From: Methanobacteriota archaeon
GTDB lineage: Archaea > Halobacteriota > Syntropharchaeia > Alkanophagales > Methanospirareceae
Direction: 5' to 3'
Assembly (NCBI GenBank): GCA_034660015.1
Contig: JAYEII010000142.1
Coordinates: 1-59,818, forward strand
Length of the DNA stretch: 59,818 bases
The translations under genes and the position numbers were made by a program. Positions within the stretch are counted from its first letter, which is position 1. Each line of letters begins with the position of its first letter. A model generated the notes under the pieces. That model was not told where the DNA came from and did no database searches. It saw only the letters and a list, made by a program, of their open reading frames with translations. Positions 30,798-47,331 of this stretch are shown piece after piece.

Positions 30798-32120
30798 ATG
30801 GAGAAAAAAGAATTGCTAGAGATTTTGCACGACTGGAATTTTTGGAAAAAAGAATTAGATACCGGCAAAGAAAGGAGAGCATACCTTGAGAAATGTTTGA
30901 GTTTTCTCGAAACAAATGTCGTTGCTGCGATTATTGGCGTCAGGAGAGCAGGTAAATCATATCTTATGAGACAGGCAATAAAAAAATTGATTGAAAAAGG
31001 AGTGAAAAGGGAAAACATATTGATGGTGAATTTTGAAGATGGAAGATTTGCAGAGTTATATCCAAAATTGCTCGATGAGATTTATGAAACTTATCTTGAA
31101 TTTTTAAACCCAGAAGAAAAACCATTTATTTTCCTTGATGAGATTCATAATGTACCAAAATGGGAAAGAGGGGTAAGAACAATGCAGGAGCTAGGAAAAG
31201 CAAAAATAATTGTTTCTGGCTCTTCTTCTAAACTTCTTGCGGGTGAACTGGCAACCGTCTTAACAGGAAGGCATCTTGATGTTTTTGTTTTCCCTCTCAG
31301 CTTTGAAGAATTTCTTTATTTTAAAGGTCTGGAGATAAAAGATGAGCTTGATTTAATAGCAAGGAGAATAGAAATAAGGAGGGCTTTTAATGAATATTTT
31401 GAATTTGGTGGCTTCCCGGAAGTTATCCTGAGTGAGGAGAAAAAACAATTACTCCTAACCTATTTTGATGATATACTTACGAAAGACATAGAGAAGAGAT
31501 ATAGGTTAAAGAAAGGCGAAAAATTAAGGGCTTTGGCACGATTTTATTTGACAAATATCTCCTTTCCCATCACTTTTAATTCATTAAAAAAGTCGCTGGA
31601 TACAACCACGAATACGATAGAAAAATACTCTTCATATCTGGAAGAAGCAGGCATGATTTTCTTTGTAAAACGCTTTTCTTTTAAAGTCAAAGAGCAGGAG
31701 AAGGCGGCAAGAAAAATTTACGCAATTGACGTTGGTTTGGCTAATGCCATCGGATTCAGGTTCAGTTCAAATCTTGGCAGAGTTGCGGAAAACATTGTGG
31801 CTATTGAATTAATGAAGAAGAGCAAATTGAACCCAAACATGGAAGTTTATTACTGGCGAGACCCTACGGGAAAGGAAGTTGATTTTATTATCAAGGAAGG
31901 ATTAAAAGTAAAACAATTAATACAAGTTTGTTGGGATATTGGAGACATGGGTACCAAAAAGAGAGAATTAAAGAGCTTGCAGAAAGCGATGGAGGAGTTC
32001 AAGTTAAAGCAGGGGTTTGTAATAACAGAAGATTATGAAGGAGAAGAGAGGTTGGATGACAAGACCATCAAGTTCATGCCCCTATCCAGGTGGCTATTGT
32101 TTGTGATTTGGTTCTTATGA
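30798..32120 (+). CDS. AAA+ ATPase with a DUF4143-type C-terminal domain
   Basis: Walker A GVRRAGKSY, Walker B FIFLDEIH, GSSSKLL and a C-terminal EVDFII...QVCW. Confidence 0.85.
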   Translation: MEKKELLEILHDWNFWKKELDTGKERRAYLEKCLSFLETNVVAAIIGVRRAGKSYLMRQAIKKLIEKGVKRENILMVNFEDGRFAELYPKLLDEIYETYLEFLNPEEKPFIFLDEIHNVPKWERGVRTMQELGKAKIIVSGSSSKLLAGELATVLTGRHLDVFVFPLSFEEFLYFKGLEIKDELDLIARRIEIRRAFNEYFEFGGFPEVILSEEKKQLLLTYFDDILTKDIEKRYRLKKGEKLRALARFYLTNISFPITFNSLKKSLDTTTNTIEKYSSYLEEAGMIFFVKRFSFKVKEQEKAARKIYAIDVGLANAIGFRFSSNLGRVAENIVAIELMKKSKLNPNMEVYYWRDPTGKEVDFIIKEGLKVKQLIQVCWDIGDMGTKKRELKSLQKAMEEFKLKQGFVITEDYEGEERLDDKTIKFMPLSRWLLFVIWFL

Positions 32121-32456: not shown

Positions 32457-34568
32457 ATGAAATTGGGAAACATGAAAGTTGGACCGAAATTGTTTGCGGG
32501 CTTTGGCATCGTGCTGGTATTGACGGCAGCACTGGGAATAGTTGCATTTTTGCAAATAGGTACCATGTCCGACCAAAGCGACATGATGGGAAGCGCGGCA
32601 GACCTGAAGGCGGAAATGAAAACGGTCAGGCAGCAGGAAAAGAACTATATAATGAGGGAAGACCAGGCGAGCATTGACAAGAACAACGAAGCCCTGGCAA
32701 AGGTAAAGAGCCTGGCAACTGAGCTTGCAGGAATGGTGCAAACCGTGGAAAGCAAAGCGGCAGTAGAGGAAGTCAAGACAACGATTCCGAAGTATGAGAG
32801 TGCCTTTGATGAGCTTCAGGCACTTACAGACACCAAAGAGGAGCAAATAGCAGCCGTCAGAGGCAATGCACGCGATTTAGAGAGTATAATAAGAGGCAGT
32901 TCCGCCGACCAGGCGACCAAAGATGCGATGATAATCAATATGTTAACTATCAGGCGAGCGAGAAAGGACTACATAATAAAAGGGGACGAGAAATATGTTA
33001 CACAAGTATCTGAAGAGCTAAACAACTTGAAGGCAGATGCCGATGCAGCTGCGATTACGGAAGCGGAAAAGAGTGCAATCAAAACCGGAGCAGATAAATC
33101 TCTGAAGCTTTTCTCGGCATACGTGAGCACCACGAAAGACGTTGCTGAGATCCAGTCAACCGACGGTCCGCTGGTGCAGTCAGGACGTGGGATAGATGCA
33201 GCGGCAACTACTCTGCTTGGGAATGCAGAGGCAGACTCAGCAAAGGCAGCGTCAACAGCCACTATGTTTGTGATAGCATTTATTATCGCAGCGATCGCAG
33301 TGGGCGTAGGAATCGCAGTTGTCGTTACCAGATCAATCGTCGGACCAGTTACCGAAGTGGTAAGAGTGATGAAGAATTTTGCGGCTGGTAAACTCGGCAC
33401 GAGAGCGGAGACAAAAGCATCAGGCGAACTCCTCGAAATGACCAACACCTTGAACCGGTTCGGAGACGATTTGCAGGGTATTATCAAAGACATCGGTAAA
33501 GTGACGGGGAACATGGCAGCAGGGGACTTGAACGCAGATTTCACCGCAGAGACACCCGGGGAATTCAATGAGATAAGGGACAACATCAACCAGGCAAACG
33601 CGAGTTTATCGGATTTGATCGGTGAGCTGGGAGGCGCGGTGGAGAACGTCGCATCGGTAGGCAAAGAATCTGCTTCCTCTGTCGAGCAGGTGAATTCCGG
33701 TATGCAGCAGATTTCTTCAGCATCGCAGCAAATAGCAAAAGGCGCTCAGGAAACTTCGGGCACCGTAAACGAATCGGCAAAGGAGATTAAGGATACGAAC
33801 GCAGTGTTACAACAGGTGCAGTCGCATGCAGAAGAATCCAACAAGTTCGCCGTGGAGAGTGCGGAAAACGCAAAAGAGATGAATGAAGCAGCTAAGAAAT
33901 CAGCAGAAGGAATGAAGGAGATACAGGAAGCTATCGGTGATACTGTGGAGGTAATTAAGAACCTGGGCAGTTCATTAGAGCAAGTAGGAAAGACCACAGA
34001 GATGATAGAAAGCATTGCCGACCAGACGAATCTATTAGCGTTGAACGCGGCGATAGAAGCCGCACGTGCCGGAGAACATGGACGTGGTTTTGCGGTCGTT
34101 GCCGAAGAAGTGCGAAAACTGGCAGAGAACTCTAGGCAGTCCACCGCAGAAATTGATACAATGATAAGTAGCTTACAAGAGGAGATGGAAAAAGTCATAA
34201 AAGCTACGGACAGCGTCACGCAGCGTGCCGACGTAGGTCGTGAGGACCTCGACAAAGTGGTGGAAAGTGTAGAAAAAACCGCAGGCATGATCAGGGACAT
34301 CAAGGGCAGGATGGGGCAAATCACCGAGGGTGCGAGAAAGGGTGCGGAAAGCATAGACAAAGTATCAAAGGGCGTGGACGAGATTGCAAGCTCTTCCGAG
34401 GAGAGCGCATCATCATCAGAAGAAAGCTCTTCCGCAGTAGAGGAGCAAACGGCAGCCATAGAACAGCTCAGCGGCGGCATGCAGAAACTTTCGGAAATTG
34501 CTGACCAGGCAACGGAGATGATTGGGAAATTCAAATTGAATGAGAACGGGGGCAAGAAACAGGAATAA
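32457..34568 (+). CDS. transmembrane methyl-accepting chemotaxis protein (4-helix-bundle sensor, HAMP, MCP signalling domain)
   Basis: Two TM helices, HAMP regions, the conserved hairpin-tip region [39 protein letters not shown], and a [20 protein letters not shown] tail. Confidence 0.92.
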
Positions 34569-34572
34569 AGGA

Positions 34573-34682
34573 GGGACTAGGGACTAGGGACTAGGCAATA
34601 GGGGTAAGGGTTTAGTCCCTTGTCCCTATTGGCTATTGGCTACGTGGCTATGTGGCTATTCGCTACTTGGCTATTCGCTATT
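34573..34682. repeat. G-type hairpin: (GGGACTA)n/(GGCAATA) arm against a (CTATTGG/CTATTCG/CTATGTGG)n arm
   Basis: GGGACTAGGGACTAGGGACTAGGCAATAGGGGTAAGGGTTTAGTCCCTTGTCCCTATTGGCTATTGGCTACGTGGCTATGTGGCTATTCGC..., followed directly by TTTTAGGAGGAGGTGAG (RBS) and cheW. Confidence 0.85.
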
Positions 34683-34705
34683 TTAGGAGGAGGTGAGAAA
34701 TAAAA

Positions 34706-35242
34706 ATGGAAGAAAAAATGGGAATGGGAATGGGAATGGAAAAAGAGGAAGTAAAAGAAAAAGCAGAAGTAGAAGGAAGTGGGGTAAACCAGCAGCAATT
34801 AGTGGTCTTCAAGCTCGGTGGCGAGGATTTCGGCGTTGACATCAATCAAGTGCGCGAGATAATAAGAAAAGGGGCTGCTACGGTGGTTCCAAACGCTCCT
34901 GGGTACGTTAAAGGTGTGATAAATCTCAGGGGGGTGATAACAACGATTATAGACCTGAGAAGAAAGTTAGGGTTGGCAGAGAAGGAAGCGGGTGATGAGC
35001 AACAAGAGCGCGTAATCGTGGTTGAGGTGAACAAAAATACCGTCGGGATGGCTGTTGACGCTGTGACAGAGGTAACCTATCTCTCAGAAAGCGACATAGA
35101 CGAAGTGCCGGCAATGGTAAAAGAGAATATAGGGACGGAGTATCTAAGGGGAGTAGGAAAACTGCCGGATAAACTGCTCATCCTGATAGACCTGAAGCGC
35201 GTGCTAAACGGAGAGGAAATGAATGTGCTGCAACCCGCATAG
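34706..35242 (+). CDS. cheW: chemotaxis coupling protein CheW
   Basis: CheW domain (LVVFKLGGEDFGVDINQVREI...VKGVINLRG...IDL). About 93% identical to the 45071..45604 product. Confidence 0.92.
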   Translation: MEEKMGMGMGMEKEEVKEKAEVEGSGVNQQQLVVFKLGGEDFGVDINQVREIIRKGAATVVPNAPGYVKGVINLRGVITTIIDLRRKLGLAEKEAGDEQQERVIVVEVNKNTVGMAVDAVTEVTYLSESDIDEVPAMVKENIGTEYLRGVGKLPDKLLILIDLKRVLNGEEMNVLQPA

Positions 35243-35317
35243 CAACATGAGAAATCACATCTCAAATCTATAAAAAGTTTGGAATTTGGGATTTTCTGAT
35301 AGGAGTTGAGAATAAAA

Positions 35318-35590
35318 ATGGAAGAAGAAAAAGAAAAAACATGGGCCTGGCTAATGCCGAGCGGGAAGATATATAAAGTGGTGACAAACCCGGGGGAGGG
35401 AACGATAGACGTCTATGATGAAGACAGAAAGTTGGTGAGTAAAGAAGAGAAACTGAGCGAAGAGGCGATAAGCCTCCTTGAGAAAATCTTTCTCGAAACC
35501 GCAGCATCAGAAGTTGGAGGGAAAGAAAAAGGAATGGAAAAGGGAGAAGGAACTGAAAACGAGCTTGGGATTGCGATGTACATACGATAA
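35318..35590 (+). CDS. small conserved hypothetical protein (paralog of 8082..8360)
   Basis: MEEEKEKTWAWLMPSGKIYKVVTNPGEGTIDVYDEDRKLV...IFLET...MYIR. Confidence 0.65.
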   Translation: MEEEKEKTWAWLMPSGKIYKVVTNPGEGTIDVYDEDRKLVSKEEKLSEEAISLLEKIFLETAASEVGGKEKGMEKGEGTENELGIAMYIR

Positions 35591-35629
35591 GAAGTAACTG
35601 CTCAATCTTCAGTTGACTTATAGGTTAGG

Positions 35630-35710
35630 TTCCAAATGGGTGCATTACGCTACAGGATTGCCTTACCTCAATTCTGCATGTTTTCCTCCTTAGTAATGCA
35701 CCCTTTGGAA
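35630..35710. repeat. unique 18-bp-stem hairpin (TTCCAAATGGGTGCATTAC ... GTAATGCACCCTTTGGAA) with a ~44-nt loop
   Basis: The arms are complementary with a single-base bulge. The 8-nt word TGCTCAAT occurs on both sides (35599-35606 and 35721-35728). Confidence 0.6.
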
Positions 35711-35767
35711 TTTTTGTAATTGCTCAATATCTAAGGGGTATAAAATTCTAAGCACTAAACTCTAAAT

Positions 35768-35810
35768 AAGCCCCTACTGGGCTTGCGGGGTTACCGGGGC
35801 AGAGCCCCTG
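35768..35810 (+). repeat. H-type GC-rich double-hairpin module (AAGCCCCTACTGGGCTTGCGGGGTTACCGGGGCAGAGCCCCTG)
   Basis: Related copies at 35886-35927, 45731-45772 and 54917-54957. Confidence 0.7.
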
Positions 35811-35885
35811 TCTAAACAAACTCCAATATCTAAACTCAAAATTCAAACAAACCTTTCTTTTGGGATTTTGGTATTGTTTAGGATT

Positions 35886-35927
35886 AAACCCTTTCAGGGC
35901 TTGCGGGGACGTGGGCAGAGCCCACGA
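35886..35927 (+). repeat. H-type GC-rich double-hairpin module (AAACCCTTTCAGGGCTTGCGGGGACGTGGGCAGAGCCCACG)
   Basis: CGTGGGC-AGA-GCCCACG forms a perfect 7-bp stem. It abuts a reversed single-unit A-arm (GTTAATCTGTGTC). Confidence 0.7.
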
Positions 35928-35980
35928 GCGTTAATCTGTGTCAACAATATATTTACTATTTTCTTGTGGAATCACCCTTT

Positions 35981-36229
35981 TCATTCCTCCAAATACGCCA
36001 TACCTGAACTGATATTGAAGCAAATCGTGAATCTTTCGAGCAAACGCTTGAAACCAAGAATCAAAGGAACTCTATCGCCAATCGCACAAAACGCATAGAA
36101 TTCAACCTCTTTCGTACGATTCAAATCCTCATCAAAAAGCATTCCTTTAATAACGCTCACTTTCACTGGCAGACTGCATTCCTTCTTGGCAACAATCCCA
36201 CGAATCGAATGTTTCGCCTTCTCTTCCAC
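35981..36229 (-). CDS. hypothetical protein; the C-terminus resembles the end of retropepsin-like aspartyl protease domains (weak)
   Basis: AIGDRVPLILGFKRLLERFTICFNISSGMAYLE. The reading frame stays open upstream as far as the TAG that ends the 36308..36532 ORF, so the true start is unclear. Confidence 0.35.
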   Translation of the reverse strand: MEEKAKHSIRGIVAKKECSLPVKVSVIKGMLFDEDLNRTKEVEFYAFCAIGDRVPLILGFKRLLERFTICFNISSGMAYLEE

Positions 36230-36307
36230 TTGAATCCCCTCCCAGATATATTTTGGAATTTTAAATCCAATTCCGGGTCTATCAGTTTCTTTATCCGAAT
36301 TCGCAAC

Positions 36308-36532
36308 CTAATAGACATTTGCTCCACTTTCTACGAAAATTACTGGAATTTCCTCTCTATTCTTCCCAGTAAGCTTTGATGCTTTCTCTTTCACATATTT
36401 TAAGTCATCACCTGCCACAATGACCTCCCTGTTCATTATTGCAACCCATAGATCTCTGAACTTCAGTTGCAGGCTTTTATAATTGTCGAGACCCCACTTC
36501 ATATCTTCCATGAAAGTCTTTTGGATTTCCAT
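36308..36532 (-). CDS. small DUF5678-like protein
   Basis: KFRDLWVAIMNREVIVAGDDLKYVKEKASKLTGKNREEIPVIFVE fits the ~70-aa archaeal family pattern. Confidence 0.55.
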   Translation of the reverse strand: MEIQKTFMEDMKWGLDNYKSLQLKFRDLWVAIMNREVIVAGDDLKYVKEKASKLTGKNREEIPVIFVESGANVY

Positions 36533-36649
36533 TTTCCCTCACTCTAATATTATCTAATTGCATTCCTTATATAAATAGATTCATTCATCAATGCTATATT
36601 TAACTCCCTCTATATGTTCTCGAATAATTTTTACAGCTTCGAGTGTTTT

Positions 36650-36689
36650 CATCTGCGTTAATCTGTGTTAATCTGCGTTAATCTGTGTC
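36650..36689 (-). repeat. A-type left arm (three units) in minus orientation, at the 3' end of the decayed ATPase gene
   Basis: The minus strand reads TAG-ACACAGATTAACGCAGATTAACACAGATTAACGCAGATG. The TAG is the stop codon of the ORF. Confidence 0.85.
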
Positions 36690-37345
36690 TATAATTTATT
36701 TTCTATTTTCTTGTCATGCCCTAACAGCCACTTCCAGAGCGGCACAAAACGTATTTTTTTACCTTTTATTTCCTCCTCTTCCTCATAGTCCCATGTGATA
36801 ACGAGCAAATCAGTGCATTTTAACTCTTTGCTTGCTTTTATCAATTTACCAATATTCTCCGAGAACCTGAATCCCCGCACATAATAGAATCCCGTATCTA
36901 TTATATAGACTTTTCTTACAGACCGGATTTGCTTAAAAGCAGAGTATCCAAACTTTTTTTTTCCAATTTCTCTATCTCTCTTATCCCAAATCTCCTTACT
37001 ATGTCTTTTGCAGTTATATCCTCGAAATAATTCGTTAAGAGCGCTCTTTTTCTTGTGGGTGAATCAGAGAGCACCACTTCGGGGAATCCACCATATTTCA
37101 AATAGATGTCAAACAGGCTAAGTATTTTTATTCTGTTTTTAAATTGTTAACGTACAAATAAGCGATGGATGATTTCCCTGCTCTTCTCACGCCAGATAAA
37201 ACAAGAGCTACTTTGGCACCAAATAAACTTTTCATTCTGGTTAGATATGCGGGTCTATCAATCAGTTTTTCATCGAAATTCCCCCAGAAGTTTCAATCTA
37301 CTAATATTTCCAATATCTCTCTTTCGTTCATATTAAATATATTTG
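36689..37345 (-). pseudogene. decayed DUF4143-type AAA ATPase gene (fragments in several frames, internal deletions)
   Basis: C-terminal fragment KASKELKCTDLLVITWDYEEEEEIKGKKIRFVPLWKWLL, middle fragment GGFPEVVLSD...YFEDITAKDIVRRF, and an N-terminal fragment with a Walker A remnant read antisense to 37165..37350. Confidence 0.75.
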
Positions 37346-37434
37346 CATAGAAATACTTAAAGTTTATCGGTCAAATGTAATAAAAACTTACCGATGTATT
37401 TTCACTTTCATCTCCATAGTATATAAGATAACAA

Positions 37435-37520
37435 GACACTGATGGATTTTTTCTTTTTTTGTTGGACTGGGCTAACGGCATTGCTCTTTTTATCTGCGTT
37501 AATCAGTGTTAATCTGTGTC
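37435..37520 (-). repeat. A-type element (degenerate right arm) in minus orientation, upstream of the decayed ATPase gene
   Basis: The minus strand reads GACACAGATTAACACTGATTAACGCAGAT...CCGTTAGCCCAGTCCAACAAAAAAAGAAAAAATCCATCAGTGTC. Confidence 0.75.
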
Positions 37521-37530
37521 TATAAAATTT

Positions 37531-37603
37531 AATTTTTATTTCAAATATCTTCAATAAAATTACAAATAACAGATAAAAAATTTTATCCCTACGAAAGGTT
37601 TTT
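37531..37603 (+). promoter_or_regulatory. conserved ~73-bp upstream block shared with 41082-41157; contains the inverted repeat GATAAAA-AA-TTTTATC
   Basis: AATTTTTATTTCAAATATCTTCAATAAAATTACAAATAACAGATAAAAAATTTTATCCCTACGAAAGGTTTTT is about 90% identical to the block upstream of the poly-HAMP MCP. Confidence 0.5.
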
Positions 37604-37652: not shown

Positions 37653-39980
37653 ATGAGCAGCAAAGCAGACGAGGGGAAGAGGAAAAAGCGAGAAAAAGGC
37701 TTTAAATTCGGGATTAGAGAGAAGATATTGATTATATTTTTGATAATTATTACGATATCCACGGCTGTTACGGGATACCTCGGTTCGAACACACTCGACA
37801 GTGCAGACAAGGCTGCCGTTTCCATAACGAGAGACGAATTAACATCAAGTGCAGAAACAGATCTTATGTTTTTAGCGGAAGATAAGGCACATGAGGTCGG
37901 CGAGTTCTGCTCCGAAGTTGCCCGTGACACGGCAGGTTCGGCATCTTATGTGTATCACGCCTTTACAGACGATACCTATGCGGATCTCACCTACAAGGGG
38001 GACCTATACGCTAACTTTGGCTACGCCGACTGGAAGCACGAGGCTAACAGGAACAGGATAAACGGGATTCTGGATGGAACTATCACTGACCCAATGTACG
38101 ACGAACTATTAGCTATATGTGATGATGCAAACGATACGAAGCTGAACACTGCCCTCAGGACGTTAGCAGCGGGCAGTTATGCGGAGCGACCAGCGAGCCA
38201 TAAGAAGGCATCCAGGATAAACGGCACTTTGTGGTCAAAGTTGATGAGTGTAAATACGTTAGTGAAGGTGAATAGCAAGAAAGGCACTTGCGACCAGTTC
38301 CTGTTGTACAACTTCATGTACGGGCTGCTGACAAAAGAGGCACAAAATGAGATTGACCAGTCTTTAATTGCCGAGGTGACAATAAGGAGTCAAATAGACA
38401 GCCATGATGATTATGATATGGTGAGGCTTGACTATTGGGGGAACACAACGTATTCTACGTCATTAATTTACTCGAAGAAGCCCATTATAATTCCACTGCC
38501 TTTTCATAATATATACTACTGTCCTAAGAACAAAGCGGTAAGAGAAAAAGGAGAAGGATTGGGACCCGTCTGGACAGTAATTGGGTGTACGGGGGAGCCG
38601 AGCATGACTTGCACCGTTCCGGTCTGCCGAGCCCCTCTTGAACCACTGAGCGAAGAAAATAAGATGGTTGGTGCCGTAACTTATTGGACCGACCTGACGA
38701 CACTGTCCGCGCGTATCGCAAGCATAACGGTGGAGGAGACGGGGTATGCGTTTATGGTAAATGATAAAGGATTAGCGATTGCACATCCAGACGCTCGCAT
38801 GCTGGAGATAGACCTCACAGCAGGCGAAACGGAGTTTAACACCGCGGTGAAGAAGATGGTGGAAGGAAGGAGCGGAATCGAACGGATTACGCATGAGGGA
38901 AAACCGTTTTACATCGCGTATGCACCGGTAGATATTACGGGCTGGAGCATTGCTCTGATGGCTCCTTTTGAAGAGGTTATTCAACCTGCGGTGGACGTGG
39001 CGAGTGAAATGGACGAGAAAACAAATACGCTGTATCTGTATCTCAGTACAGCAACGATATTGATTATAATGCTCGCAGCACTCGTAGGATATGTCGTTGC
39101 CAGTACGCTAACAAAACCCATAACAGATTTGGCAGAGGGCACAAAAGCCATTTCAAAGGGTGACCTTTCCCACAGGATTGAGATAGACCGAAAAGATGAG
39201 TTCGGCGAGCTGGCGACGGCATTTAACCACATGACCGTTTCATTGCAAGAACATATAGAAAAGCTCAAGGAAAGAACGGCAGAAGTGGAAAAACTCCTCA
39301 GGCATAAAGATGAATTTATAACCCAGTTAGGGCACGATTTAAAGACACCGTTAGCACCACTTGTGTCCTTGCTTCCCATGGTAGAGAAACGAGAAAAAGA
39401 CCCTAAATCGAAGGAACTGTTAGAAGTAACTATTCACAGTGTCAATTATATGAAAGACCTGGTTATTAAAACCTTACAGATCGCAAGGCTTTCTTCCCCT
39501 GATGTAGAGCGTAATATCGAAGATATAAATCTCTTGCAGGGGGCCAATAATGTTATCGGAAGTGAAAAATACATTGTTAAGGAGAAAGGCATCAAGATAG
39601 AAAATAAAATCAACGACAAAATCAGTGTCAAAGCAGATAAACAAAGATTTGAAGAACTATTTGGCAATATTGTTACTAATGCCGTAAAATTCACGCCGGA
39701 TGGCGGTGGCACTATTACCATTGATGCGAAGGAAGATAAAGATTTTATTACCGTATCAGTTAAGGATACAGGCATTGGCATAACCGGGGAACAATTAGAA
39801 CATATCTTTGACGAGTTTTACAAGGCTGACGAATCCCGGCATGAACTGGACTCTTCAGGTCTTGGGCTTTCTATCTGTAAGCGTATTGTGGAACAGCATG
39901 GAGGAAAGATAAGGGCAGAAAGCCAGGGGCAGGGTATGGGCACCACCATTTATTTCACGCTTAAATCCGGTGATGAATGA
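37653..39980 (+). CDS. transmembrane sensor histidine kinase (large extracytoplasmic Cache-like domain, HAMP, HisKA, HATPase_c)
   Basis: TM1, a ~400-aa outside domain, TM2, HAMP (PITDLAEGTKAISKGDLSHRIEIDRKDEFGELATAFNHM), H-box ITQLGHDLKTPL, and G-boxes DTGIGI and GLGLSICKRIV. Confidence 0.88.
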   Translation: MSSKADEGKRKKREKGFKFGIREKILIIFLIIITISTAVTGYLGSNTLDSADKAAVSITRDELTSSAETDLMFLAEDKAHEVGEFCSEVARDTAGSASYVYHAFTDDTYADLTYKGDLYANFGYADWKHEANRNRINGILDGTITDPMYDELLAICDDANDTKLNTALRTLAAGSYAERPASHKKASRINGTLWSKLMSVNTLVKVNSKKGTCDQFLLYNFMYGLLTKEAQNEIDQSLIAEVTIRSQIDSHDDYDMVRLDYWGNTTYSTSLIYSKKPIIIPLPFHNIYYCPKNKAVREKGEGLGPVWTVIGCTGEPSMTCTVPVCRAPLEPLSEENKMVGAVTYWTDLTTLSARIASITVEETGYAFMVNDKGLAIAHPDARMLEIDLTAGETEFNTAVKKMVEGRSGIERITHEGKPFYIAYAPVDITGWSIALMAPFEEVIQPAVDVASEMDEKTNTLYLYLSTATILIIMLAALVGYVVASTLTKPITDLAEGTKAISKGDLSHRIEIDRKDEFGELATAFNHMTVSLQEHIEKLKERTAEVEKLLRHKDEFITQLGHDLKTPLAPLVSLLPMVEKREKDPKSKELLEVTIHSVNYMKDLVIKTLQIARLSSPDVERNIEDINLLQGANNVIGSEKYIVKEKGIKIENKINDKISVKADKQRFEELFGNIVTNAVKFTPDGGGTITIDAKEDKDFITVSVKDTGIGITGEQLEHIFDEFYKADESRHELDSSGLGLSICKRIVEQHGGKIRAESQGQGMGTTIYFTLKSGDE

Positions 39981-40044
39981 GATAGCTAAGTATAGAGTGG
40001 TATATAAAGATTTGGAGGAAAAATATGGTAAGGAGGAAAGGCAG

Positions 40045-40434
40045 ATGAAGAAAAAGGTTATGATAGTGGACGACGAGTACCCTATCCGGTTTATTGTAAG
40101 AGAAATTTTTGAACCTGAAGGGTTTGAAGTGGTTACTGCCGGTAGTGGAAGAGAATGCCTTGAAGAGCTGGAAAAAGGATTCAAGGGCGTGATACTCATG
40201 GACATCATGATGCCGCAGATGGATGGATGGGATACAATAAGAGCGATAGTTGATAGAGGATTTATCGAAGGGAATATAATTGCTATGCTCACGGCAAAAG
40301 ACGTGCCAGACCAAAAAATGGAGGGGCTGCAAGAATATGTGATAGATTATATAACAAAACTATTTGAGCCCGATGAACTCGTAGCTACCGTTGAAGAATA
40401 TTTCTCATGCCTAAATCTAAACACAAAAGAATAA
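40045..40434 (+). CDS. single-domain response regulator (receiver)
   Basis: The RBS AAGGAGGA precedes ATG 40045. VMIVDDE...ILMDIMMPQMDG...LTAK...ITK. Confidence 0.85.
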   Translation: MKKKVMIVDDEYPIRFIVREIFEPEGFEVVTAGSGRECLEELEKGFKGVILMDIMMPQMDGWDTIRAIVDRGFIEGNIIAMLTAKDVPDQKMEGLQEYVIDYITKLFEPDELVATVEEYFSCLNLNTKE

Positions 40435-40449
40435 AGAGGGGTAATAACA

Positions 40450-41022
40450 ATGCAGACAAAAAACACAGTTGTAATAATAGGTGCCTCCACCGGTGGATTT
40501 AAGATAGTGAGGAAAATATTTTCTGGTTTACCCGTGCTGAATGCAGGTATAATAATAGTTCAACACATGCTCTGGAGCGTCAATGGGGCATTTAAAGAAA
40601 AATTGAACGGAAACGCAGGGATGGAAGTAAAAATAGCTGACGATGGAGATGGTATCGAAGCAGGGAAGGCATATATAGCTCCAAGCGGGCTTCATCTACG
40701 ACTAAAAAATAATACAAAAATACGTTTATTCGACGATGGGAAAGTAAACGCCGTCCGTCCGTCAATTGACGTAACAATGAAATCTCTTAAAAGCGGACCC
40801 GAAGGCGGGATTATAGGTGTAATTCTCACGGGTATGGGGAAAGACGGAGTAGAGGGTATAAGTCATATTAAGAGCATCGGAGGAATTACAATCGCTCAAG
40901 ATAGAGACACAAGTGCAATTTACGGGATGCCAAAGGCAGCCGTTGAAACAGGAGACGTTGATTTTGCTCTAACACCAGAAGAAATAAGCGATAAACTAAT
41001 TGAAGTGTGTGGCGTGGCATAA
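40450..41022 (+). CDS. stand-alone CheB-type methylesterase catalytic domain (no receiver domain)
   Basis: The catalytic triad contexts are intact: GASTGG (Ser), VQHM (His) and GMGKDG (Asp). It is about 190 aa, whereas the full-length CheB at 47332..48426 is 364 aa. Confidence 0.85.
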   Translation: MQTKNTVVIIGASTGGFKIVRKIFSGLPVLNAGIIIVQHMLWSVNGAFKEKLNGNAGMEVKIADDGDGIEAGKAYIAPSGLHLRLKNNTKIRLFDDGKVNAVRPSIDVTMKSLKSGPEGGIIGVILTGMGKDGVEGISHIKSIGGITIAQDRDTSAIYGMPKAAVETGDVDFALTPEEISDKLIEVCGVA

Positions 41023-41081
41023 TGGAAAAATATATCCACATTTTATTGAGCACGTCCATCTCAACTTCACCTTAATAACCC

Positions 41082-41157
41082 AATTTTTATTTCAATTATC
41101 TGCAATAAAATTACAAATAGTGGATAATAAATTTTATCCTTACGAAAGGTTTTTTAA
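41082..41157 (+). promoter_or_regulatory. second copy of the conserved upstream block (see 37531-37603)
   Basis: AATTTTTATTTCAATTATCTGCAATAAAATTACAAATAGTGGATAATAAATTTTATCCTTACGAAAGGTTTTTT. Confidence 0.5.
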
Positions 41158-41219
41158 GTAACTACTGAAACATCATTACGTAGGTAAGGCAAAAAATAAA
41201 ACCAAAAAGAGGAGGAAAT

Positions 41220-44090
41220 ATGTCAGAAGTAGAAAAGAACAGGGGAATTGGTGAAGGGGTCATTACGCCGGCAACCAGCGATGTAAACCAGTTTACAAAA
41301 GCGCAGTTGCAAAGCGAACTCGATAGAAAGGAACAGGAGTTACGAGAACTCCAACAGGACATGGATAATTTGGTAAGCGAGGCTGAAATGCTTACCAAAG
41401 CAGCAGTCGAGGGGAAATTAGATACAAGAGGTGACGTGACGAAGTTCAAAGGTGGGTCAGCGGAAATAGTGCAGGGCGTGAACGACACGCTCGATGCCGT
41501 AATAGGACCGTTGAATGTAGCGGCGGAATACGTGGACAGGATATCAGCGGGGGACATCCCGGCGGAGATAACGGACGAATACAAGGGCGACTTCAACGAG
41601 ATAAAGAACAACCTGAACAAGGTCATCATCTCTTTGAACGCACTGGTAGCAGAAGCGGGAATGCTTAACGAAGCAGCAGTGGGAGGTAAACTGGACACGA
41701 GAGGAGACGCGAGCAAGTTCAAGGGCGATTATGCGGGAATAGTGCAGGGCATGAACGAGACGCTGGACGCGGTTATAGGACCGCTGAACGTGGCGGCGGA
41801 ATACATGGACCGAATATCAGCGGGGGACATCCCGGCAGAGATAACGGATGAATACAAAGGCGACTTCAACGAGATCAAGAACAACCTGAACAAGGTCATC
41901 ATCTCTTTGAACAGCTTAGTGGCGGAAGCGGGAATGCTAAACGAAGCCGCAGTGGAAGGTAAACTGGACACGAGAGGAGACGTGAGCAAGTTCAAGGGCG
42001 ATTACGCGGGGATAGTGCAGGGCATAAACGAGACGCTGGATGCCGTTATCGGGCCGTTGAACATGACCGCGGAATACGTGGACCGAATATCAGCGGGGGA
42101 CATCCCGGCGGAGATAACGGACGAATATAAAGGTGACTTCAACGAGGTGAAGAACAACCTGAACAAGGTCATCCGGTCTTTGAATGGCTTGCTGGAAGAG
42201 ACAGGGACGCTTGCCAATGCCACAGTGGAAGGCAAACTGGAGGCGAGAGGCGACGTGACGAAGTTCAAAGGCGGGTATGCGAAATTGGTACAGGGCATAA
42301 ACGAGACGCTGGATGCCGTTATCGGGCCGTTGAACATGACCGCGGAATACGTGGACCGAATATCAGCGGGGGACATCCCGGCGGAGATAACGGACGAATA
42401 TAAAGGTGACTTCAACGAGGTGAAGAACAACCTGAACAAGGTCATCCGGTCTTTGAATGGCTTGCTGGAAGAGACAGGGACGCTTGCCAATGCCACAGTG
42501 GAAGGCAAACTGGAGGCGAGAGGCGACGTGACGAAGTTCAAAGGCGGGTATGCGAAATTGGTACAGGGCATAAACGAGACGCTGGATGCCGTTATCGGGC
42601 CGTTGAACATGACCGCGGAATACGTGGACCGAATATCAGCGGGGGACATCCCGGCGGAGATAACGGACGAATACAAAGGTGACTTCAACGAGGTGAAGAA
42701 CAACCTGAACAAGGTCATCCGGTCTCTGAATGGCTTGCTGGAAGAAGTAGGAATGGTTGGAGAAGCCGCGGTGGAAGGAAAACTGGAGACGAGGGGAGAC
42801 GTGACAAAGTTCAAAGGCGAGTATGCGAAATTAGTGCAGGGGGTAAACGATATGGTAGATGCTGTGGCAAGTCCTATCCAGGAGGTTATCCGAATGTGCG
42901 ACGCACTTGCTGAAGGGGATCTTTCAGAGCGGATAAAAATAGAAGCACAGGGGGATTTCCTGAAACTGACCGAGACATTGAATAATTTCGGGGAGGAGTT
43001 GCAAACGATTATCAATGACATCAGTAAAGTAGCACAGAACATGGCAGCAGGGAACCTGAGCACAGATTTCACTTCCGAGACACCAGGAGAATTCAATGCG
43101 ATACGCGAGAACATCAACCAGGCAAATGCGAGTTTATCGGATTTAATCGGTGAGCTGCAAGGCACAGTGCAGGATGTCGCATTAATAGGTAAAGAATCTG
43201 CATCATCCGTAGAGCAGGTGAATTCAGGCATGCAGCAGATTTCTTCTGCATCGCAGCAAATAGCAAAGGGCGCTCAGGAAACCTCGGGCACCGTAAACGA
43301 ATCGGCAAAGGAGATTAAGGAGACAAACGCAGTGTTACAACAGGTGCAGTCAAATGCAGAAGAATCGAATAAGTTCGCCGTGGAGGGTGCAGAAAGCGCA
43401 AAAGAGACGAATGAAGCGGCTGAGAAATCATCAGAAGGGATGAAGGAAATACAGGAGGCTATTGGCAGTACTGTGGAGGTAATAAAAAACCTCGGCAGTT
43501 CGTTAGAGCAAGTAGGAAAAGCAACAGATATGATAGAGGGCATTGCCGACCAGACGAATCTGCTTGCTTTGAATGCCGCGATAGAAGCTGCACGTGCCGG
43601 AGAACATGGACGTGGCTTTGCCGTCGTTGCCGAAGAAGTGCGAAAACTGGCAGAGAACTCAAAGCAGTCCACCGCAGAGATAGATACAATGATAAAGGGC
43701 TTGCAAGTGGAGATGGACAAAGTAATAAAAGCCACAGACAGCGTCACGCAGCGTGCCGATGTAGGTCGTGAAGACCTCGAAAAAGCGGTAACGAGTGTAG
43801 AAAAAACAGCAGGCATGATCGAAGACATCAAGAACAGAATGCTGCAGATTACTGAGGGTGCAAGAAAAGGAGCAGAAAGCATAGAAAGAGTATCGAAGGG
43901 TGTGGACGAGATTGCAAGCTCTTCAGAAGAGAGTGCATCGTCATCAGAAGAAAGCTCTTCTGCCGTAGAGGAGCAAACGGCAGCCATAGAACAGCTCAGC
44001 GGTGGCATGCAGAAACTATCGGAAATCTCCGACCAGGCAATAGAGATGATTGGGAAATTCAAACTAAGGGAGGGCGAGAAACAGGTGTAA
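41220..44090 (+). CDS. soluble (no TM) methyl-accepting chemotaxis protein with an N-terminal array of ~91-aa HAMP-like repeats
   Basis: No hydrophobic helices. About 5.5 repeats of ...[63 protein letters not shown]. The C-terminal MCP signalling domain is nearly identical to that of 32457..34568. Confidence 0.9.
41405..42870 (+). repeat. 273-bp tandem repeat array (~5.5 units) inside the MCP gene; the units from ~42025 to ~42700 are essentially identical
   Basis: For example GTGGAAGGCAAACTGGAGGCGAGAGG occurs at 42225 and again at 42498 (period 273 nt = 91 codons). Long stretches recur base-for-base. Confidence 0.9.
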
Positions 44091-44215
44091 AAGAGCCGTA
44101 TTTGTTTACCGCCGAGATCACGGAGAGCGCGGAGATGACGAAAAAGACTCTCTGTGTTCTCTGCGGGCTCAGCGGTAAACTATTTTCTATTTTAGGAGGA
44201 GGTGAGAGAAAAAAA

Positions 44216-44515
44216 ATGAGTGGTAAAAGCTTGGTAAACATGCAAATAGTGGTAGAAAAAGTAGAAAACATGGATGAGTTTCTTGTCAGAGGAGGATATT
44301 ATGGAAGCGGAATCGACATGGAACACTTAGTTCTGGATGTTCTCCTATCAATAGACGAGTTATTTCATCGATCAGTGGGCCTTGAGGTAAAAGAACTAAC
44401 AGAAAAGAAAACAAAGGGGAAAATCGTGGTAAACATGCAGATAGCGGCAGAAGAAATAGAAACTTTAGGTGGGCTTCCAGAGGAGGATTTTATCCCGGTG
44501 TGGAGCTGCGTATAA
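44216..44515 (+). CDS. uncharacterised small protein, copy 1 of a tandem pair inside the che operon
   Basis: A strong RBS (TAGGAGGAGGTGAG) precedes ATG 44216. MSGKSLVNMQIVVEKVENMDEFLVRGGYYGSGIDMEHLVLDVLLSIDELFH...GKIVVNMQIAAEEIETLGG shows an internal N/C repeat. Confidence 0.5.
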   Translation: MSGKSLVNMQIVVEKVENMDEFLVRGGYYGSGIDMEHLVLDVLLSIDELFHRSVGLEVKELTEKKTKGKIVVNMQIAAEEIETLGGLPEEDFIPVWSCV

Positions 44516-44519
44516 AAGA

Positions 44520-44606
44520 GGCAATAGGGATTGGGCAATAGGCAATAGGCAATAGGGCAGGGCAATAGCTGCCTATTGGCTATTCGCTATTTGGCTATTG
44601 GCTATT
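44520..44606. repeat. G-type hairpin ((GGCAATA)n against (CTATTGG/CTATTCG)n)
   Basis: GGCAATAGGGATTGGGCAATAGGCAATAGGCAATAGGGCAGGGCAATAGCTGCCTATTGGCTATTCGCTATTTGGCTATTGGCTATT, followed by TTAGAAGGAGGTGA (RBS). Confidence 0.85.
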
Positions 44607-44626
44607 TTAGAAGGAGGTGATAAAAA

Positions 44627-44962
44627 ATGAGTGGTAAAAGCATGGTAAACATGCAAATAGTGGTAGAAAAAGTAGAAAACATGGATGAGTTTCTTGTCAG
44701 AGGAGGATATTATGGAAGCGGAATCGACATGGAACACTTAGTTCTGGATGTTCTCCTATCAATAGACGAGTTATTTCATCAATCCGTAGGTCTTGAGGTA
44801 GAAGAACTAACAGAAAAGAAAACAAAGGGTAAAATCGTGGTAAACATGCAGATAGCGGCAGAAGAAATAGAAACCTTAGGTGGGCTTAGGTGGGCTTCAA
44901 GGGGAGGATTTTATCCCAGTGTGGAGCTGCGTATAAAAGAGGCAATAGGCATTGGGCAATAG
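44627..44962 (+). CDS. uncharacterised small protein, copy 2 of the tandem pair
   Basis: The first ~85 codons are nearly identical to copy 1. A 10-nt duplication (GGTGGGCTTA GGTGGGCTTC) shifts the frame of the tail into the G-type repeat. Confidence 0.5.
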   Translation: MSGKSMVNMQIVVEKVENMDEFLVRGGYYGSGIDMEHLVLDVLLSIDELFHQSVGLEVEELTEKKTKGKIVVNMQIAAEEIETLGGLRWASRGGFYPSVELRIKEAIGIGQ

Positions 44963-45047
44963 GCAAATAGGGACTAGGCAATAGGGGTAAGGGTTTAGTT
45001 TAGTCCCTTGTCCCTATTGGCTATGTGGCTATGTGGCTATTCGCTAT
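44941..45047. repeat. G-type hairpin (GGCAATA/GGGACTA arm against CTATTGG/CTATGTGG arm)
   Basis: GGCAATAGGCATTGGGCAATAGGCAAATAGGGACTAGGCAATAGGGGTAAGGGTTTAGTTTAGTCCCTTGTCCCTATTGGCTATGTGGCTATGTGGCTATTCGC, followed by the RBS and cheW. Confidence 0.85.
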
Positions 45048-45070
45048 TTTAGAAGGAGGTGAGAATAAAA

Positions 45071-45604
45071 ATGAAAGAAAAAATGGAAATGGGAATAGAA
45101 ATGGAAAAAGAGGAAGTAAAAGAAAAAACAGAATCGAGCGGGGTAAACCAGCAGCAATTAGTGGTCTTCAAGCTCGGCGGTGAGGATTTCGGCGTTGACA
45201 TCAATCAAGTCCGCGAGATAATAAGAAAAGGGACTACTACGGTGGTTCCAAACGCTCCTGAGTTCGTTAAAGGGGTGATAAATCTCAGAGGGCAGATAAC
45301 AACGATTATAGACCTGAGAAGAAAGTTAGGGTTGGCAGAGAAGGAAGATGGCGATGAGCAACAAGAAAGGATAATCGTAGTTGAGGTGAACAAAAATACT
45401 GTGGGGATGGCTGTTGACGCCGTGACAGAGGTAACGTATCTTTCAGAAAGCGACATAGACGAAGTGCCGACAATGGTAAAAGAGAATATAGGGACGGAGT
45501 ATCTCAAGGGAGTAGGAAAACTGCCTGATAAACTGCTCATCCTGATAGACCTGAAACGTGTGCTGAACGGAGAGGAAATGAACGTGCTGCAACAACCAGC
45601 ATAA
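45071..45604 (+). CDS. cheW: chemotaxis coupling protein CheW
   Basis: CheW domain. ATG 45071 follows the RBS GAAGGAGGTGAG. Confidence 0.92.
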   Translation: MKEKMEMGIEMEKEEVKEKTESSGVNQQQLVVFKLGGEDFGVDINQVREIIRKGTTTVVPNAPEFVKGVINLRGQITTIIDLRRKLGLAEKEDGDEQQERIIVVEVNKNTVGMAVDAVTEVTYLSESDIDEVPTMVKENIGTEYLKGVGKLPDKLLILIDLKRVLNGEEMNVLQQPA

Positions 45605-45730
45605 AAACACGAAAAATCCCAAATTCCCAAAAAGAAACCACGAGATTTCACAACACTTTTTTTTTTTTACAAAAAGAAAACCTGTGCTAAAAGAAAAACT
45701 AAGGGAATGTTTTTAGTCAAGGTTTTTACT

Positions 45731-45772
45731 AAGCCCTTACAGGGCTTGCGGGGTCGTGGGGTGGAACCCCAC
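45731..45772 (+). repeat. H-type GC-rich double-hairpin module
   Basis: AAGCCCTTACAGGGCTTGCGGGGTCGTGGGGTGGAACCCCAC. It is preceded by a reversed fragment of the B-type core (45650-45715). Confidence 0.7.
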
Positions 45773-45844
45773 ATAGGTAAAAAAGTTGTGTGAAAATCTG
45801 TGTAATCTTGTGGTTAAAATCAGTTCAGGGGGTGTAAAAAGAAA

Positions 45845-46762
45845 GTGCGGTTCGCTTTGCCAGGAGAGGATACATGGAGAGAAGGAAAGATAGCGCTCGA
45901 AAACGAGGGCTTATACTTCGGCAGCAACGAGCAATCCAAGCGCTCCTTCCTCTCCCTTCCTTTTCTGAAAAAAAACAAAGAAACTGGCTTCTTCATTCTA
46001 CTAAGGAGTATGAAAGACGTGATACGAGAGGAACGGGGTATCCTGACCATAAAACACACGGGCAATGCCACCTCGCTTGCACAAGAACCGGGCTCTGAGT
46101 CGGAGCTGCTGCTTTCGACACAACTCGCTGCAGACGAGCAGGTGCTGAACGAGGTGGAACGGGAGCTGATAATGAGCATGGACGCATACAAGTTCAACGT
46201 TTACTTTACGCATGCGGGCGAAGGGGGTGTTCTATCAATGGAAAAGAACGTAGAGCTGGAAAAAGGGCTGTTGAAGATTTCTAACAACGCGTTGTGGATA
46301 ATCGGACGGAACAACCACAAGCGAATCACATGGGACGATATAGTAAACGTGGAGCAGAAAAAAAGGAGCAGATATAAAGGGACTGAATTTGGTGCGGTTT
46401 CTATTGACTATTTCAGTGAGGGAAGCACAAACAACGTGGTAGAATCCACCATCGTCATCACCAAAGGCAACACCATTGAGGTATTAAAACGACATGTCAT
46501 GGAACTGCTGAGTGCATATAAAATGGAGGAAAAACTTCCAGACATGGAAAACCAGATACTGTCAATGATGTATGCCGGTGCTTTGGACTTGTCCGCACTT
46601 GCATCAACTGCTGAAGCCTTTGGGCTGAGCGAGGAAGAGCTGAAAAATCAGTTAGAACACATGAGTGAGCTGGGCATACTTGACGCGGCGAATCAAACAC
46701 TGACGAAGAAAGGCATTAAATACGTGATGGACCTGTCGAAAAACGGCACTTTCGGTGGTTAA
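45845..46762 (+). CDS. cheF: archaeal chemotaxis protein CheF-like (DUF439), the adaptor between CheY and the archaellum
   Basis: About 305 aa and located between cheW and cheY. The C-terminal region has a wHTH-like DMENQILSMMYAGALDLSALA...LSEEELKNQLEHMSELGILD. The GTG start is preceded by GGGGGTG. The call rests mainly on context, size and architecture. Confidence 0.6.
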   Translation: MRFALPGEDTWREGKIALENEGLYFGSNEQSKRSFLSLPFLKKNKETGFFILLRSMKDVIREERGILTIKHTGNATSLAQEPGSESELLLSTQLAADEQVLNEVERELIMSMDAYKFNVYFTHAGEGGVLSMEKNVELEKGLLKISNNALWIIGRNNHKRITWDDIVNVEQKKRSRYKGTEFGAVSIDYFSEGSTNNVVESTIVITKGNTIEVLKRHVMELLSAYKMEEKLPDMENQILSMMYAGALDLSALASTAEAFGLSEEELKNQLEHMSELGILDAANQTLTKKGIKYVMDLSKNGTFGG

Positions 46763-46830
46763 AAGGGAAGGTGAAAGAAACCACGAGATAATCTTGTGGT
46801 TAATAAAAAAGGGGGTGAGATAGAAAAGAA

Positions 46831-47193: not shown

Positions 47194-47218
47194 AGAGATG
47201 AACAAGAAATAAATTATT

Positions 47219-47302
47219 GACACAGATTAACACAGATGATAAAAGTCAACAATGTCTGTCAAACTAAAATAAATCTGCGTAAATCCGTGTTAATCTGCGT
47301 CC
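47219..47302 (+). repeat. A-type hairpin element inside the che operon (between cheY and cheB)
   Basis: GACACAGATTAACACAGATGATAAAAGTCAACAATG...AAATCTGCGTAAATCCGTGTTAATCTGCGTCC, followed by TAAATAGAAGG. ATG 47332 lies 30 nt after the hairpin. Confidence 0.9.
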
Positions 47303-47331
47303 TAAATAGAAGGATGGGATTTTGAAGAGGA

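Follow-up and report, generated by a model that had tools for sequence, protein, structure and literature searches.

In the textbook account of chemotaxis, CheA alone activates CheB, and adaptation thus runs as a closed feedback loop. A locus of a Methanobacteriota archaeon (GTDB lineage Halobacteriota; Syntropharchaeia; Alkanophagales; Methanospirareceae) raises the question of whether chemoreceptor modification can also be entered from outside this loop. The stretch of DNA analysed, positions 1 to 59,818 of contig JAYEII010000142.1 (assembly GCA_034660015.1), hereafter the window, is a 59.8-kb archaeal motility and signalling island. It contains three consecutive forward-strand genes encoding a membrane sensor histidine kinase (37653-39980), a single-domain receiver (40045-40434) and a stand-alone CheB-family catalytic domain (40450-41022). 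These are followed by a gene for a soluble methyl-accepting chemotaxis protein (MCP) with multiple HAMP domains and by a che operon with its own full-length CheB. The three genes constitute one conserved operon and are inherited together. Through this operon, an ordinary two-component sensor can probably reset the methylation of chemoreceptors without involving CheA.

The kinase (775 aa) has HAMP (E = 2e-17, residues 482-533), HisKA (E = 1e-8, residues 552-615) and HATPase_c (E = 2e-28, residues 662-771) domains in a Pfam scan, and two hydrophobic segments, TM1 (residues 17-45) and TM2 (residues 458-490), enclosing an extracytoplasmic sensor of about 410 aa. The H-box histidine is His561 (nt 39333-39335), embedded in HDLKTPL, and the N and G boxes are present (NAVKF, DTGIGI, GLGLS). 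The protein therefore combines the H-box histidine, the HATPase N/G boxes and the input domain of a classical two-component kinase. Its closest NCBIfam matches are kinases of the WalK/PhoR/BaeS type. An earlier note on this DNA had described it as a Cache/HAMP transmembrane kinase. The HAMP domain, the transmembrane segments and HisKA are all there, but Cache does not stand as a firm label: the sensor matches dCache_1 with 37.9 bits (cut-off 45) and Cache_3-Cache_2 with 26.9 bits (cut-off 27.7), and only over residues ~331-442. These partial sub-threshold matches are suggestive of a Cache-like sensor.

The receiver is a protein of 129 aa with a Response_reg domain (E = 4.5e-24) and no other Pfam match. 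A longer open reading frame (ORF) starting from a GTG at 39970 is possible; homologues begin at the ATG (MKKKVMIVDD), upstream of which lies GGAGG. The acidic pocket (D9, D10), the phospho-acceptor D53 (nt 40201-40203), T83 and K105 are all kept, as in two-component receivers. By its best NCBIfam matches (YycF, 74.8 bits; PhoB, 70.4 bits; CheB receivers, 51 bits), the domain is of the OmpR/PhoB type. The C-terminal winged-helix DNA-binding domain is not present, and the protein ends ~12 residues past the receiver domain. Identity to the receiver of the resident CheB is 31% and to CheY 29%. A family search returned 1914 matches, the best 120 of which are 58-95% identical and mostly 119-132 aa long; single-domain receivers of this length with 60-85% identity make up the family. 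Conservation is higher in the receiver family than in the esterase: archaeal and Geobacter-type members are 56% identical in the receiver versus 48% in the esterase.

Among structures in the PDB, the first match of the receiver is 3CG4, a CheY-like protein of Methanospirillum hungatei JF-1 solved by structural genomics, followed by the receivers of YycF, MicA, VicR and PhoP. 3CG4 and the window receiver belong to the same family (135.7 bits, 51% identity, TMt 0.93) and share the signature GWDTIR...MLTAK..PD.KM.GLQEYV.DYITKPF. To our knowledge, no function has been assigned to 3CG4.

The third gene encodes 190 aa matching Pfam CheB_methylest (PF01339) over the full profile (E = 5.3e-55, positions 1-174 of 174), that is, the fold class of protein-glutamate methylesterases/glutamine deamidases. 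The Ser-His-Asp triad consists of Ser13 (nt 40486-40488, in GASTGG), His39 (40564-40566, in VQHM) and Asp132 (40843-40845, in GMGKDG). These motifs, of the form GxSTGG/QHM/GMGxDG, align with the catalytic motifs of the solved CheB domains 7ESG and 3SFT. An AlphaFold model superposes on 3SFT and 1CHD with TMt of 0.85-0.86 (for 3SFT, TMt 0.86 and a root-mean-square deviation (rmsd) of 2.4 Å). There is no fused N-terminal receiver, the protein starting seven residues before the catalytic domain, and the scores against the NCBIfam CheB models NF001965 and NF009206 (185.4 and 183.0 bits) are below the respective cut-offs of 342 and 293. To judge from these comparisons, the catalytic domain is a true member of the CheB family, and the protein fails the two-domain CheB definition.

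A spacer of 15 nt (40435-40449) separates the receiver stop codon (TAA, 40432-40434) from the esterase ATG and contains, 8 nt before the ATG, a GAGGGG (40436-40441) that resembles a Shine-Dalgarno sequence. Transcription of the three genes probably ends, and that of the MCP/che unit begins, in the intergenic region 41023-41219 (197 nt, AT-rich, with several T5-T6 runs). In a public brine-metagenome run, a contig of 1767 nt agrees with positions 39804-41570 without a single difference. Because this independent contig matches exactly, the kinase/receiver/esterase/MCP junctions are real and not an assembly artefact. The Pfam scan, the sequence itself and alignment all bear out what the earlier note had read in this region: three ORFs, an intact triad, an esterase devoid of a receiver and a 15-nt gap. 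They also bear out its view that a soluble poly-HAMP MCP and a che operon with a canonical CheB come next (Pfam; NCBIfam CheB, 433.7 bits).

Does the arrangement occur elsewhere? A check of its phylogenetic distribution, which the earlier note had proposed, revealed that the three genes recur in the same order across many archaea and bacteria. Searching proteins with the esterase as the query gave 4713 relatives, and of the best 120 nearly all are 184-222 aa long and have PF01339 only. These 120 come from Halobacteriota, Methanomicrobiaceae, relatives of Geobacter, Dehalococcoidia and others, some of them being annotated as 'CheB methylesterase domain-containing protein'. Flanks could be assessed for 28 stand-alone esterases from archaea and bacteria. 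Every one of them has a receiver of the same family directly upstream, and in 27 the receiver-esterase junction measures between -14 and +36 nt, Geobacter-type loci having overlaps of 4-14 nt that are out of frame. An orthologous kinase core (128-404 bits), with varying sensor domains, lies upstream in 24. The window receiver scores 123-209 bits against the receivers of these modules, versus ~20-50 bits against CheY or CheB receivers, and the window esterase scores 132-272 bits against other module members. The window itself belongs to this grouping, having an esterase of the stand-alone clade, a 3CG4-like receiver directly upstream and a HisKA kinase core before it.

Among genome-derived sequences, the three genes are closest (81-88% nt identity) to a locus (L001) in a Methanophagales/ANME-1 metagenome-assembled genome (MAG), where a HAMP-HisKA-HATPase kinase, a 129-aa receiver and a 195-aa esterase follow one another in the same order. 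The same gene order is found in 19 loci of Geobacter, Pelobacter and Desulfuromonadaceae. In 14 of these the module comes directly after the che operon, giving the order CheA-CheW-MCP-CheR-CheD-CheB-kinase-receiver-esterase, often followed by CheY or an MCP. The module is also present in Halobacteriota MAGs (L081, where it is next to CheD, and L088), in an archaeal metagenome contig (L085), in further metagenome contigs (L093 and L099) and in a Candidatus Anammoxibacter MAG (L082). In an unclassified MAG (L086) it is convergent to a gene for a 1785-aa poly-HAMP MCP, a homologue of the one in the window (1350 bits). The complete genome of Geotalea uraniireducens encodes the module with a kinase bearing CHASE4 and PAS domains. 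A Dehalococcoidia MAG (L084) has the receiver and esterase without a classical kinase, inside a che operon and immediately before cheA, and in L008 no kinase lies between the canonical cheB and the receiver. DNA of the window was matched in brine, marine-sediment and cold-seep metagenomes.

Distance matrices of the receiver and the esterase are correlated with r = 0.84 (a value reached by none of 2000 permutations), and those of the kinase and the receiver with r = 0.80. Shared phylogeny inflates these values, and the correlations therefore show co-inheritance, not physical contact. The adjacency in 24 of the 28 loci and the correlation would be compatible with a cognate kinase-receiver pair; the neighbour is CheA in L084, and no kinase lies between cheB and the receiver in L008. 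Between the window and the Methanophagales relative, the ratio of nonsynonymous to synonymous substitution rates (dN/dS) is 0.35 for the receiver, 0.48 for the esterase and 0.30 for the kinase transmitter.

Comparison of the window with the same relative also shows what is held constant. The kinases are about 85-90% identical in protein and 88% in nucleotide sequence from the HAMP domain to the C-terminus (residues ~480-775), and the receiver, the esterase and the 116 nt upstream of the kinase gene are conserved as well, whereas the sensor regions of ~460 residues are unrelated. Other module kinases have PAS, PAS/GAF or CHASE4 sensors. A conserved transmitter, receiver and esterase combined with a replaced sensor is the pattern expected for a fixed output module with exchangeable inputs.

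The question of origin concerns the earlier note's description of the receiver and the esterase as a split CheB. Compared with the catalytic half of the resident full-length CheB, the esterase shows 43% identity. We also built a neighbour-joining tree from 104 CheB catalytic domains of the retrieved loci. In it, the 28 module esterases group in a single clade free of other sequences, and all 73 full-length CheBs, including those of the same loci and that of the window, fall outside this clade. We thus rejected the idea that the resident cheB was recently split or duplicated, the identities being only 43% for the esterase and 31% for the receiver and the stand-alone esterases forming a separate monophyletic clade. 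The earlier note had also considered that the arrangement might be a recently frameshifted cheB absent from relatives; the low identity and the old, monophyletic clade speak otherwise. A split of CheB is not supported as an origin either, the receiver being nearest to OmpR/PhoB/YycF (70-75 bits) and not to CheB (51 bits), and its family also occurring without the esterase. Because the receiver is OmpR/PhoB-like and the kinase WalK/PhoR/BaeS-like, 'split CheB' describes a possible way of working, not an origin.

Metagenomic proteins P0242-P0248 (347-405 aa) consist of two tandem CheB catalytic domains without a receiver. For at least three of them, the longest contig is of exactly the same length (6990, 12598 and 10869 nt) as that of a match in the receiver family, which suggests that the two are on the same contigs.

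Based on these observations, we propose the following mechanism. The membrane kinase would sense an extracellular signal via its large extracytoplasmic domain and autophosphorylate on His561, and the phosphoryl group would pass to Asp53 of the receiver. The phosphorylated receiver would then control the co-translated esterase by protein contact, in trans, as the fused receiver does in canonical CheB. The esterase, in turn, would demethylate or deamidate chemoreceptors, candidate substrates being the soluble poly-HAMP MCP (41220-44090) and a transmembrane MCP (32457-34568) encoded upstream of the module. The net effect would be an input into receptor modification that bypasses CheA and runs parallel to the resident full-length CheB. 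From sequence, we infer the phosphotransfer, the receiver-esterase binding, the sign of regulation and the MCP substrate.

The genomic context is consistent with such a role. The poly-HAMP MCP has five heptad-spaced matches to the methylation-site consensus (residues 661, 899, 906, 913 and 920), the transmembrane MCP has the same five sites and a nearly identical signalling domain, and CheR and CheD are encoded nearby. CheR would supply methyl esters for removal by any CheB-type esterase; no dedicated methyltransferase travels with the module, so the esterase must rely on methyl groups placed by CheR. We give the proposed two-component mechanism with a receptor-modifying output an even chance of being right. 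Somewhat more tentatively, the module may represent a widespread, horizontally mobile class of two-component systems, present both in archaea (Methanophagales and other Halobacteriota) and in bacteria (relatives of Geobacter, Dehalococcoidia and anammox planctomycetes) that live anaerobically. The output of this class would be covalent chemoreceptor modification instead of transcription or a second messenger, with the free receiver as a detachable subunit under phosphorylation control, interchangeable sensors and a bypass of CheA. With sensors as diverse as Cache-like, PAS, GAF and CHASE4, such systems could reset the methylation of receptors without CheA and in this way change how biased and how sensitive taxis is.

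A number of observations weigh against this interpretation, and they are given here together with the alternatives. None of the RNA runs looked through for the region matched it, and a search of the freely accessible full-text literature found no description of the operon. Further points against it, detailed below, are Leu106 of the window receiver in place of a near-invariant Pro, the copies of the module remote from che genes, the relocated cassette without a kinase in a close relative and the degenerate receivers of natural fusions. The alternative that survives best, though we consider it unlikely, holds that the esterase is constitutively active and that the linkage reflects co-expression. 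The amount of the esterase, not its activity, would then follow expression of the operon, and the receiver would act on another partner, such as the archaellum switch or some other protein, or serve as a phosphate sink. The catalytic domain of E. coli CheB is active on its own and is modulated by the receiver (PMC5809149), and archaeal single-domain receivers have been argued to act via varied protein-protein contacts (Galperin et al. 2018; PMC5847659). Furthermore, the receiver family is often found without the esterase, namely in seven loci (L087, L092, L095, L097, L098, L100 and L101), one such locus being near the archaellum gene for FlaC. When the search was started from the receiver, the esterase was present in three of the four contigs looked up and in two of about eight assessable metagenome loci (five of ~12), the remaining loci having a kinase only or unrelated neighbours. 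Since the family also occurs alone or with a kinase only, the idea of a receiver dedicated to the esterase was rejected.

Co-expression can also cite the lack of a confident docking in structural modelling, although the modelling itself speaks neither for nor against docking. Receiver-esterase docking was assessed with AlphaFold on a read-through chain (receiver, RGVIT, esterase) using an unpaired alignment of 35 sequences (A3), which was correctly blocked; two larger block alignments (A1 and A4) were discarded, as MAFFT had placed receivers under the catalytic domain. With this alignment and a predictor not made for multimers, the chain obtained a predicted local distance difference test score (pLDDT) of 87.8 and a predicted TM-score (pTM) of 0.61, with confidently modelled domains, an uncertain domain arrangement and no confident docking. 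The same model, built from unpaired sequences, did not superpose on the full-length CheBs 6YMZ and 1A2O (TMq 0.52, rmsd ~19 Å). Natural receiver-esterase fusions in this esterase clade are limited to three clusters (P0035, P0038 and P0241; 318-322 aa). The receivers of P0035 and P0038 are degenerate, with VVGRDP in place of the VDDE acidic pocket and LTEPF without the conserved Lys, and look like pseudo-receivers; that of P0035 is 32% identical to the window receiver. We therefore did not retain these fusions as 'Rosetta stone' evidence.

Co-expression has difficulty with the other side of the relationship. The receiver can exist without the esterase, but the esterase clade always travels with this receiver directly upstream, the genes usually overlapping or nearly touching. 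This pairing holds across bacteria and archaea and with both types of kinase, mostly classical histidine kinases and CheA in the Dehalococcoidia locus. A dependence that strict, and in one direction only, is difficult to account for if the genes are merely co-expressed. As a control, a CheB domain was found within 4 kb in none of 70 loci centred on generic receivers.

According to the second alternative, the esterase acts on a protein other than a chemoreceptor, and its adjacency to che genes in the window is incidental. The module does stand away from che and MCP genes in L001, L082, L085, L088 and G. uraniireducens: in L001 it is flanked by a helicase gene on one side and NADH-dehydrogenase-like genes on the other, and 14 kb of this locus contain no che gene; in G. 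uraniireducens there is no che gene within 9 kb. For this reason, adjacency to che genes was rejected as a defining feature. The cassette has also moved within closely related genomes. Loci L089 (9265-10579) and L090 (8093-9407), which are 92-95% identical in nucleotide sequence, have only a receiver-esterase cassette equivalent to window positions 40051-41013. It has been relocated beside genes syntenic with those at 13.7-18.3 kb of the window, the kinase is absent, and a Mu-transposase-C fragment adjoins the cassette. Here, the 5' end of the receiver gene has been replaced, resulting in an in-frame TAG and a truncated receiver, with the esterase remaining intact. The same breakpoints, at about window positions 40069 and 41007, were found in a marine-sediment run. 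Judging by these rearrangements, the module is mobile and sometimes decays. The adjacency of the window module to a che operon is not common to its two nearest relatives, and the operon, too, is by this measure horizontally mobile.

Against an unrelated substrate stand the position of the module directly downstream of che genes in 14 of the 19 Geobacter-type loci, inside the che operon in L084 and beside CheD in L081, as well as the adjacency of poly-HAMP MCPs in two independent contexts (the window and L086). In addition, the esterase retains the full CheB profile and the triad, and the anammox genome that carries the module in L082 also encodes a che cluster elsewhere in the same assembly (L022). 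We regard this second alternative as improbable.

The last alternative sees in the arrangement an accident of recent date or a remnant in decay, namely a cheB that was frameshifted or split, or a mobile cassette without function. It is very improbable: it could appeal to the receiver stop and the esterase start being in the same frame in the window (TAA plus five codons apart), to Leu (CTA) at receiver codon 106 (nt 40360-40362) in place of the Pro that follows the active-site Lys in 99% of the family, in 3CG4 and in the Methanophagales relative (CCA), to the gene fragments and dispersed repeats in the ~2.3 kb upstream of the kinase gene (35300-37600) and to the broken copy beside a transposase fragment in a close relative, but it is at odds with the low identities to the resident CheB, the old monophyletic clade, a gene order kept across two domains of life, the esterase's own ribosome-binding site, receiver and esterase genes that are in different frames in L001 and overlap out of frame in Geobacter-type loci, the dN/dS of 0.30-0.48 for the three genes and a receiver for which Leu106 is the sole departure from family positions that are at least 90% conserved. 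On sequence grounds, we regard both a pseudogene and a recent split as effectively excluded.

The module lies within a broader set of motility and signalling genes. Archaellum genes are found at 2233-6341 (the KaiC-like ArlH at 2233-2976, the secretion-type ATPase ArlI at 2978-4789 and an ArlJ-like membrane protein at 4791-6341), and the che system of the window therefore likely drives real motility. Downstream of them are several PAS histidine kinases and receivers. The transmembrane MCP (32457-34568) and a CheW (34706-35242), identified by Pfam scan, are encoded on the forward strand upstream of the three-gene module. The poly-HAMP MCP on its other side (forward strand, 956 aa) has HAMP_2 matches in seven stretches and MCPsignal in Pfam, five HAMP repeat units of 273 nt and no hydrophobic segment. 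Regions 32457-35242 and 41220-45604 represent a segmental duplication of MCP and CheW genes, in which nucleotide identity is 79% between the MCP signalling domains and 88% between the cheW genes, and the methylation-site motifs are identical. The duplicated MCPs differ in that one has a transmembrane sensor of the four-helix-bundle type and the other a soluble poly-HAMP array of the five 273-nt units. Two tandem ORFs between the poly-HAMP MCP gene and cheW (44102-44515, 137 aa; 44627-44962, 111 aa) share a 269-nt stretch with 97% nucleotide identity (44208-44476 versus 44619-44887) and have no Pfam or NCBIfam match.

The resident che operon (45059-52446, forward strand; Pfam scans) encodes CheW (45059-45604), a CheF-like protein (45845-46762), CheY (46831-47193), full-length CheB (47332-48426; 433.7 bits against an NCBIfam CheB cut-off of 293), CheA (48501-50549), two CheC proteins (50577-51236 and 51259-51918) and CheD (51931-52446). 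The methyltransferase CheR is encoded on the reverse strand (52988-53836; Pfam CheR, E = 8.9e-58, and CheR_N), and cofC, an F420-biosynthesis gene, comes after the che operon and CheR.

Repeated and mobile sequences are frequent in the window. A dispersed palindromic intergenic element with 10-nt units (left arm TTATAGACACAGATTAACGCAGATTAACACAGATGA, right arm TAAATCCGTGTAAATCTGCGTCTTAAATAGAAGGnAGTTATACTTTATATAC) occurs at more than 20 sites, for example at 1125-1472, 1843-1990, 6317-6484, 7187-7471, 7934-8087, 8384-8531, 12072-12270, 12859-12996, 18017-18259, 22306-22574, 26240-26442, 27362-27604, 36627-36711, 37458-37542, 47203-47346 and 53927-54089. Copies are situated immediately 5' of the kinase gene and, within the che operon, in the gap that separates cheY from cheB; the close relative L089 has the element as well. 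The element could be similar to miniature inverted-repeat transposable elements (MITE) or repetitive extragenic palindromic (REP) sequences, or could be a terminator/promoter cassette. An AAA_14/DUF4143 ATPase is represented by three intact paralogues (22748-24109, 27711-28991 and 30798-32120) and an apparent degraded fourth copy on the minus strand (~36689-37235), in the fragment-rich region just 5' of the kinase gene. A match to group II intron D1-D4 in Rfam (RF02012, 40.4 bits, E = 5e-5) at 58671-58781 on the minus strand adjoins a 314-aa ORF (58851-59795, minus strand) at the window edge. At the opposite end, about 20 tandem copies of the heptanucleotide CAGGATR (14-153) are contained within the first ORF (4-534).

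If the proposed CheA-independent control of the esterase is true, ordinary sensor kinases gain a second, open-loop entry into receptor methylation, and classical two-component signalling is directly bridged to chemotaxis adaptation in both bacteria and archaea. It would also give a function to a large and highly conserved family of orphan single-domain receivers, including the solved 3CG4, and would exemplify a response regulator in which receiver and output are made as two distinct but co-translated proteins. Because the cultured G. uraniireducens, with its complete genome, has the module, the idea is directly testable.

How does this module compare with known systems? According to the census of Galperin et al. 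2018, archaeal two-component signalling proceeds mainly through protein-protein contacts of free receivers with separate outputs, 'CheB, REC-CheB' are listed among archaeal architectures, and most archaeal REC-only regulators lack a conserved gene neighbourhood (PMC5847659). The pairing of a receiver with an esterase downstream of it, and its occurrence in bacteria, are not described there. Nor is the kinase-receiver-esterase extension mentioned in a study that compared the che clusters of Geobacter (PMC2577667). Thus, the parts, the receiverless CheB architecture included, are already on record, and it is their conserved wiring, with a free OmpR-like receiver between a sensor kinase and a CheB that lacks one, that appears to be undescribed.

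Two CheB-like proteins without a receiver offer the closest parallels. FrzG of Myxococcus xanthus is likewise a natural CheB homologue in a chemosensory cluster, without a recognisable receiver; the methylesterase (residues 150-330) is its sole Pfam domain (PMC3945109, Table 3). FrzG differs in its length of 334 aa, in keeping an N-terminal region of ~150 residues and in belonging to the CheA-based Frz system, and no separate receiver and sensor-kinase pair has been reported for it. CheBc of E. coli and Salmonella, a laboratory construct or proteolytic fragment, is also a receiverless CheB catalytic domain of ~190-200 aa and has a high catalytic rate without phosphorylation feedback (PMC5809149). 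CheBc is, however, artificial, whereas the window esterase is a member of a natural, conserved family that is always beside a specific free-standing receiver. Canonical CheB (Salmonella 1A2O, Pectobacterium 6YMZ and the protein encoded at 47332-48426 of the window) has the same fold and triad, a phosphorylatable receiver and a chemotaxis neighbourhood. In the window module, by contrast, the receiver is a separate polypeptide of OmpR/PhoB-like lineage, the adjacent kinase is a membrane HisKA sensor and not CheA, and the esterase belongs to a separate clade.

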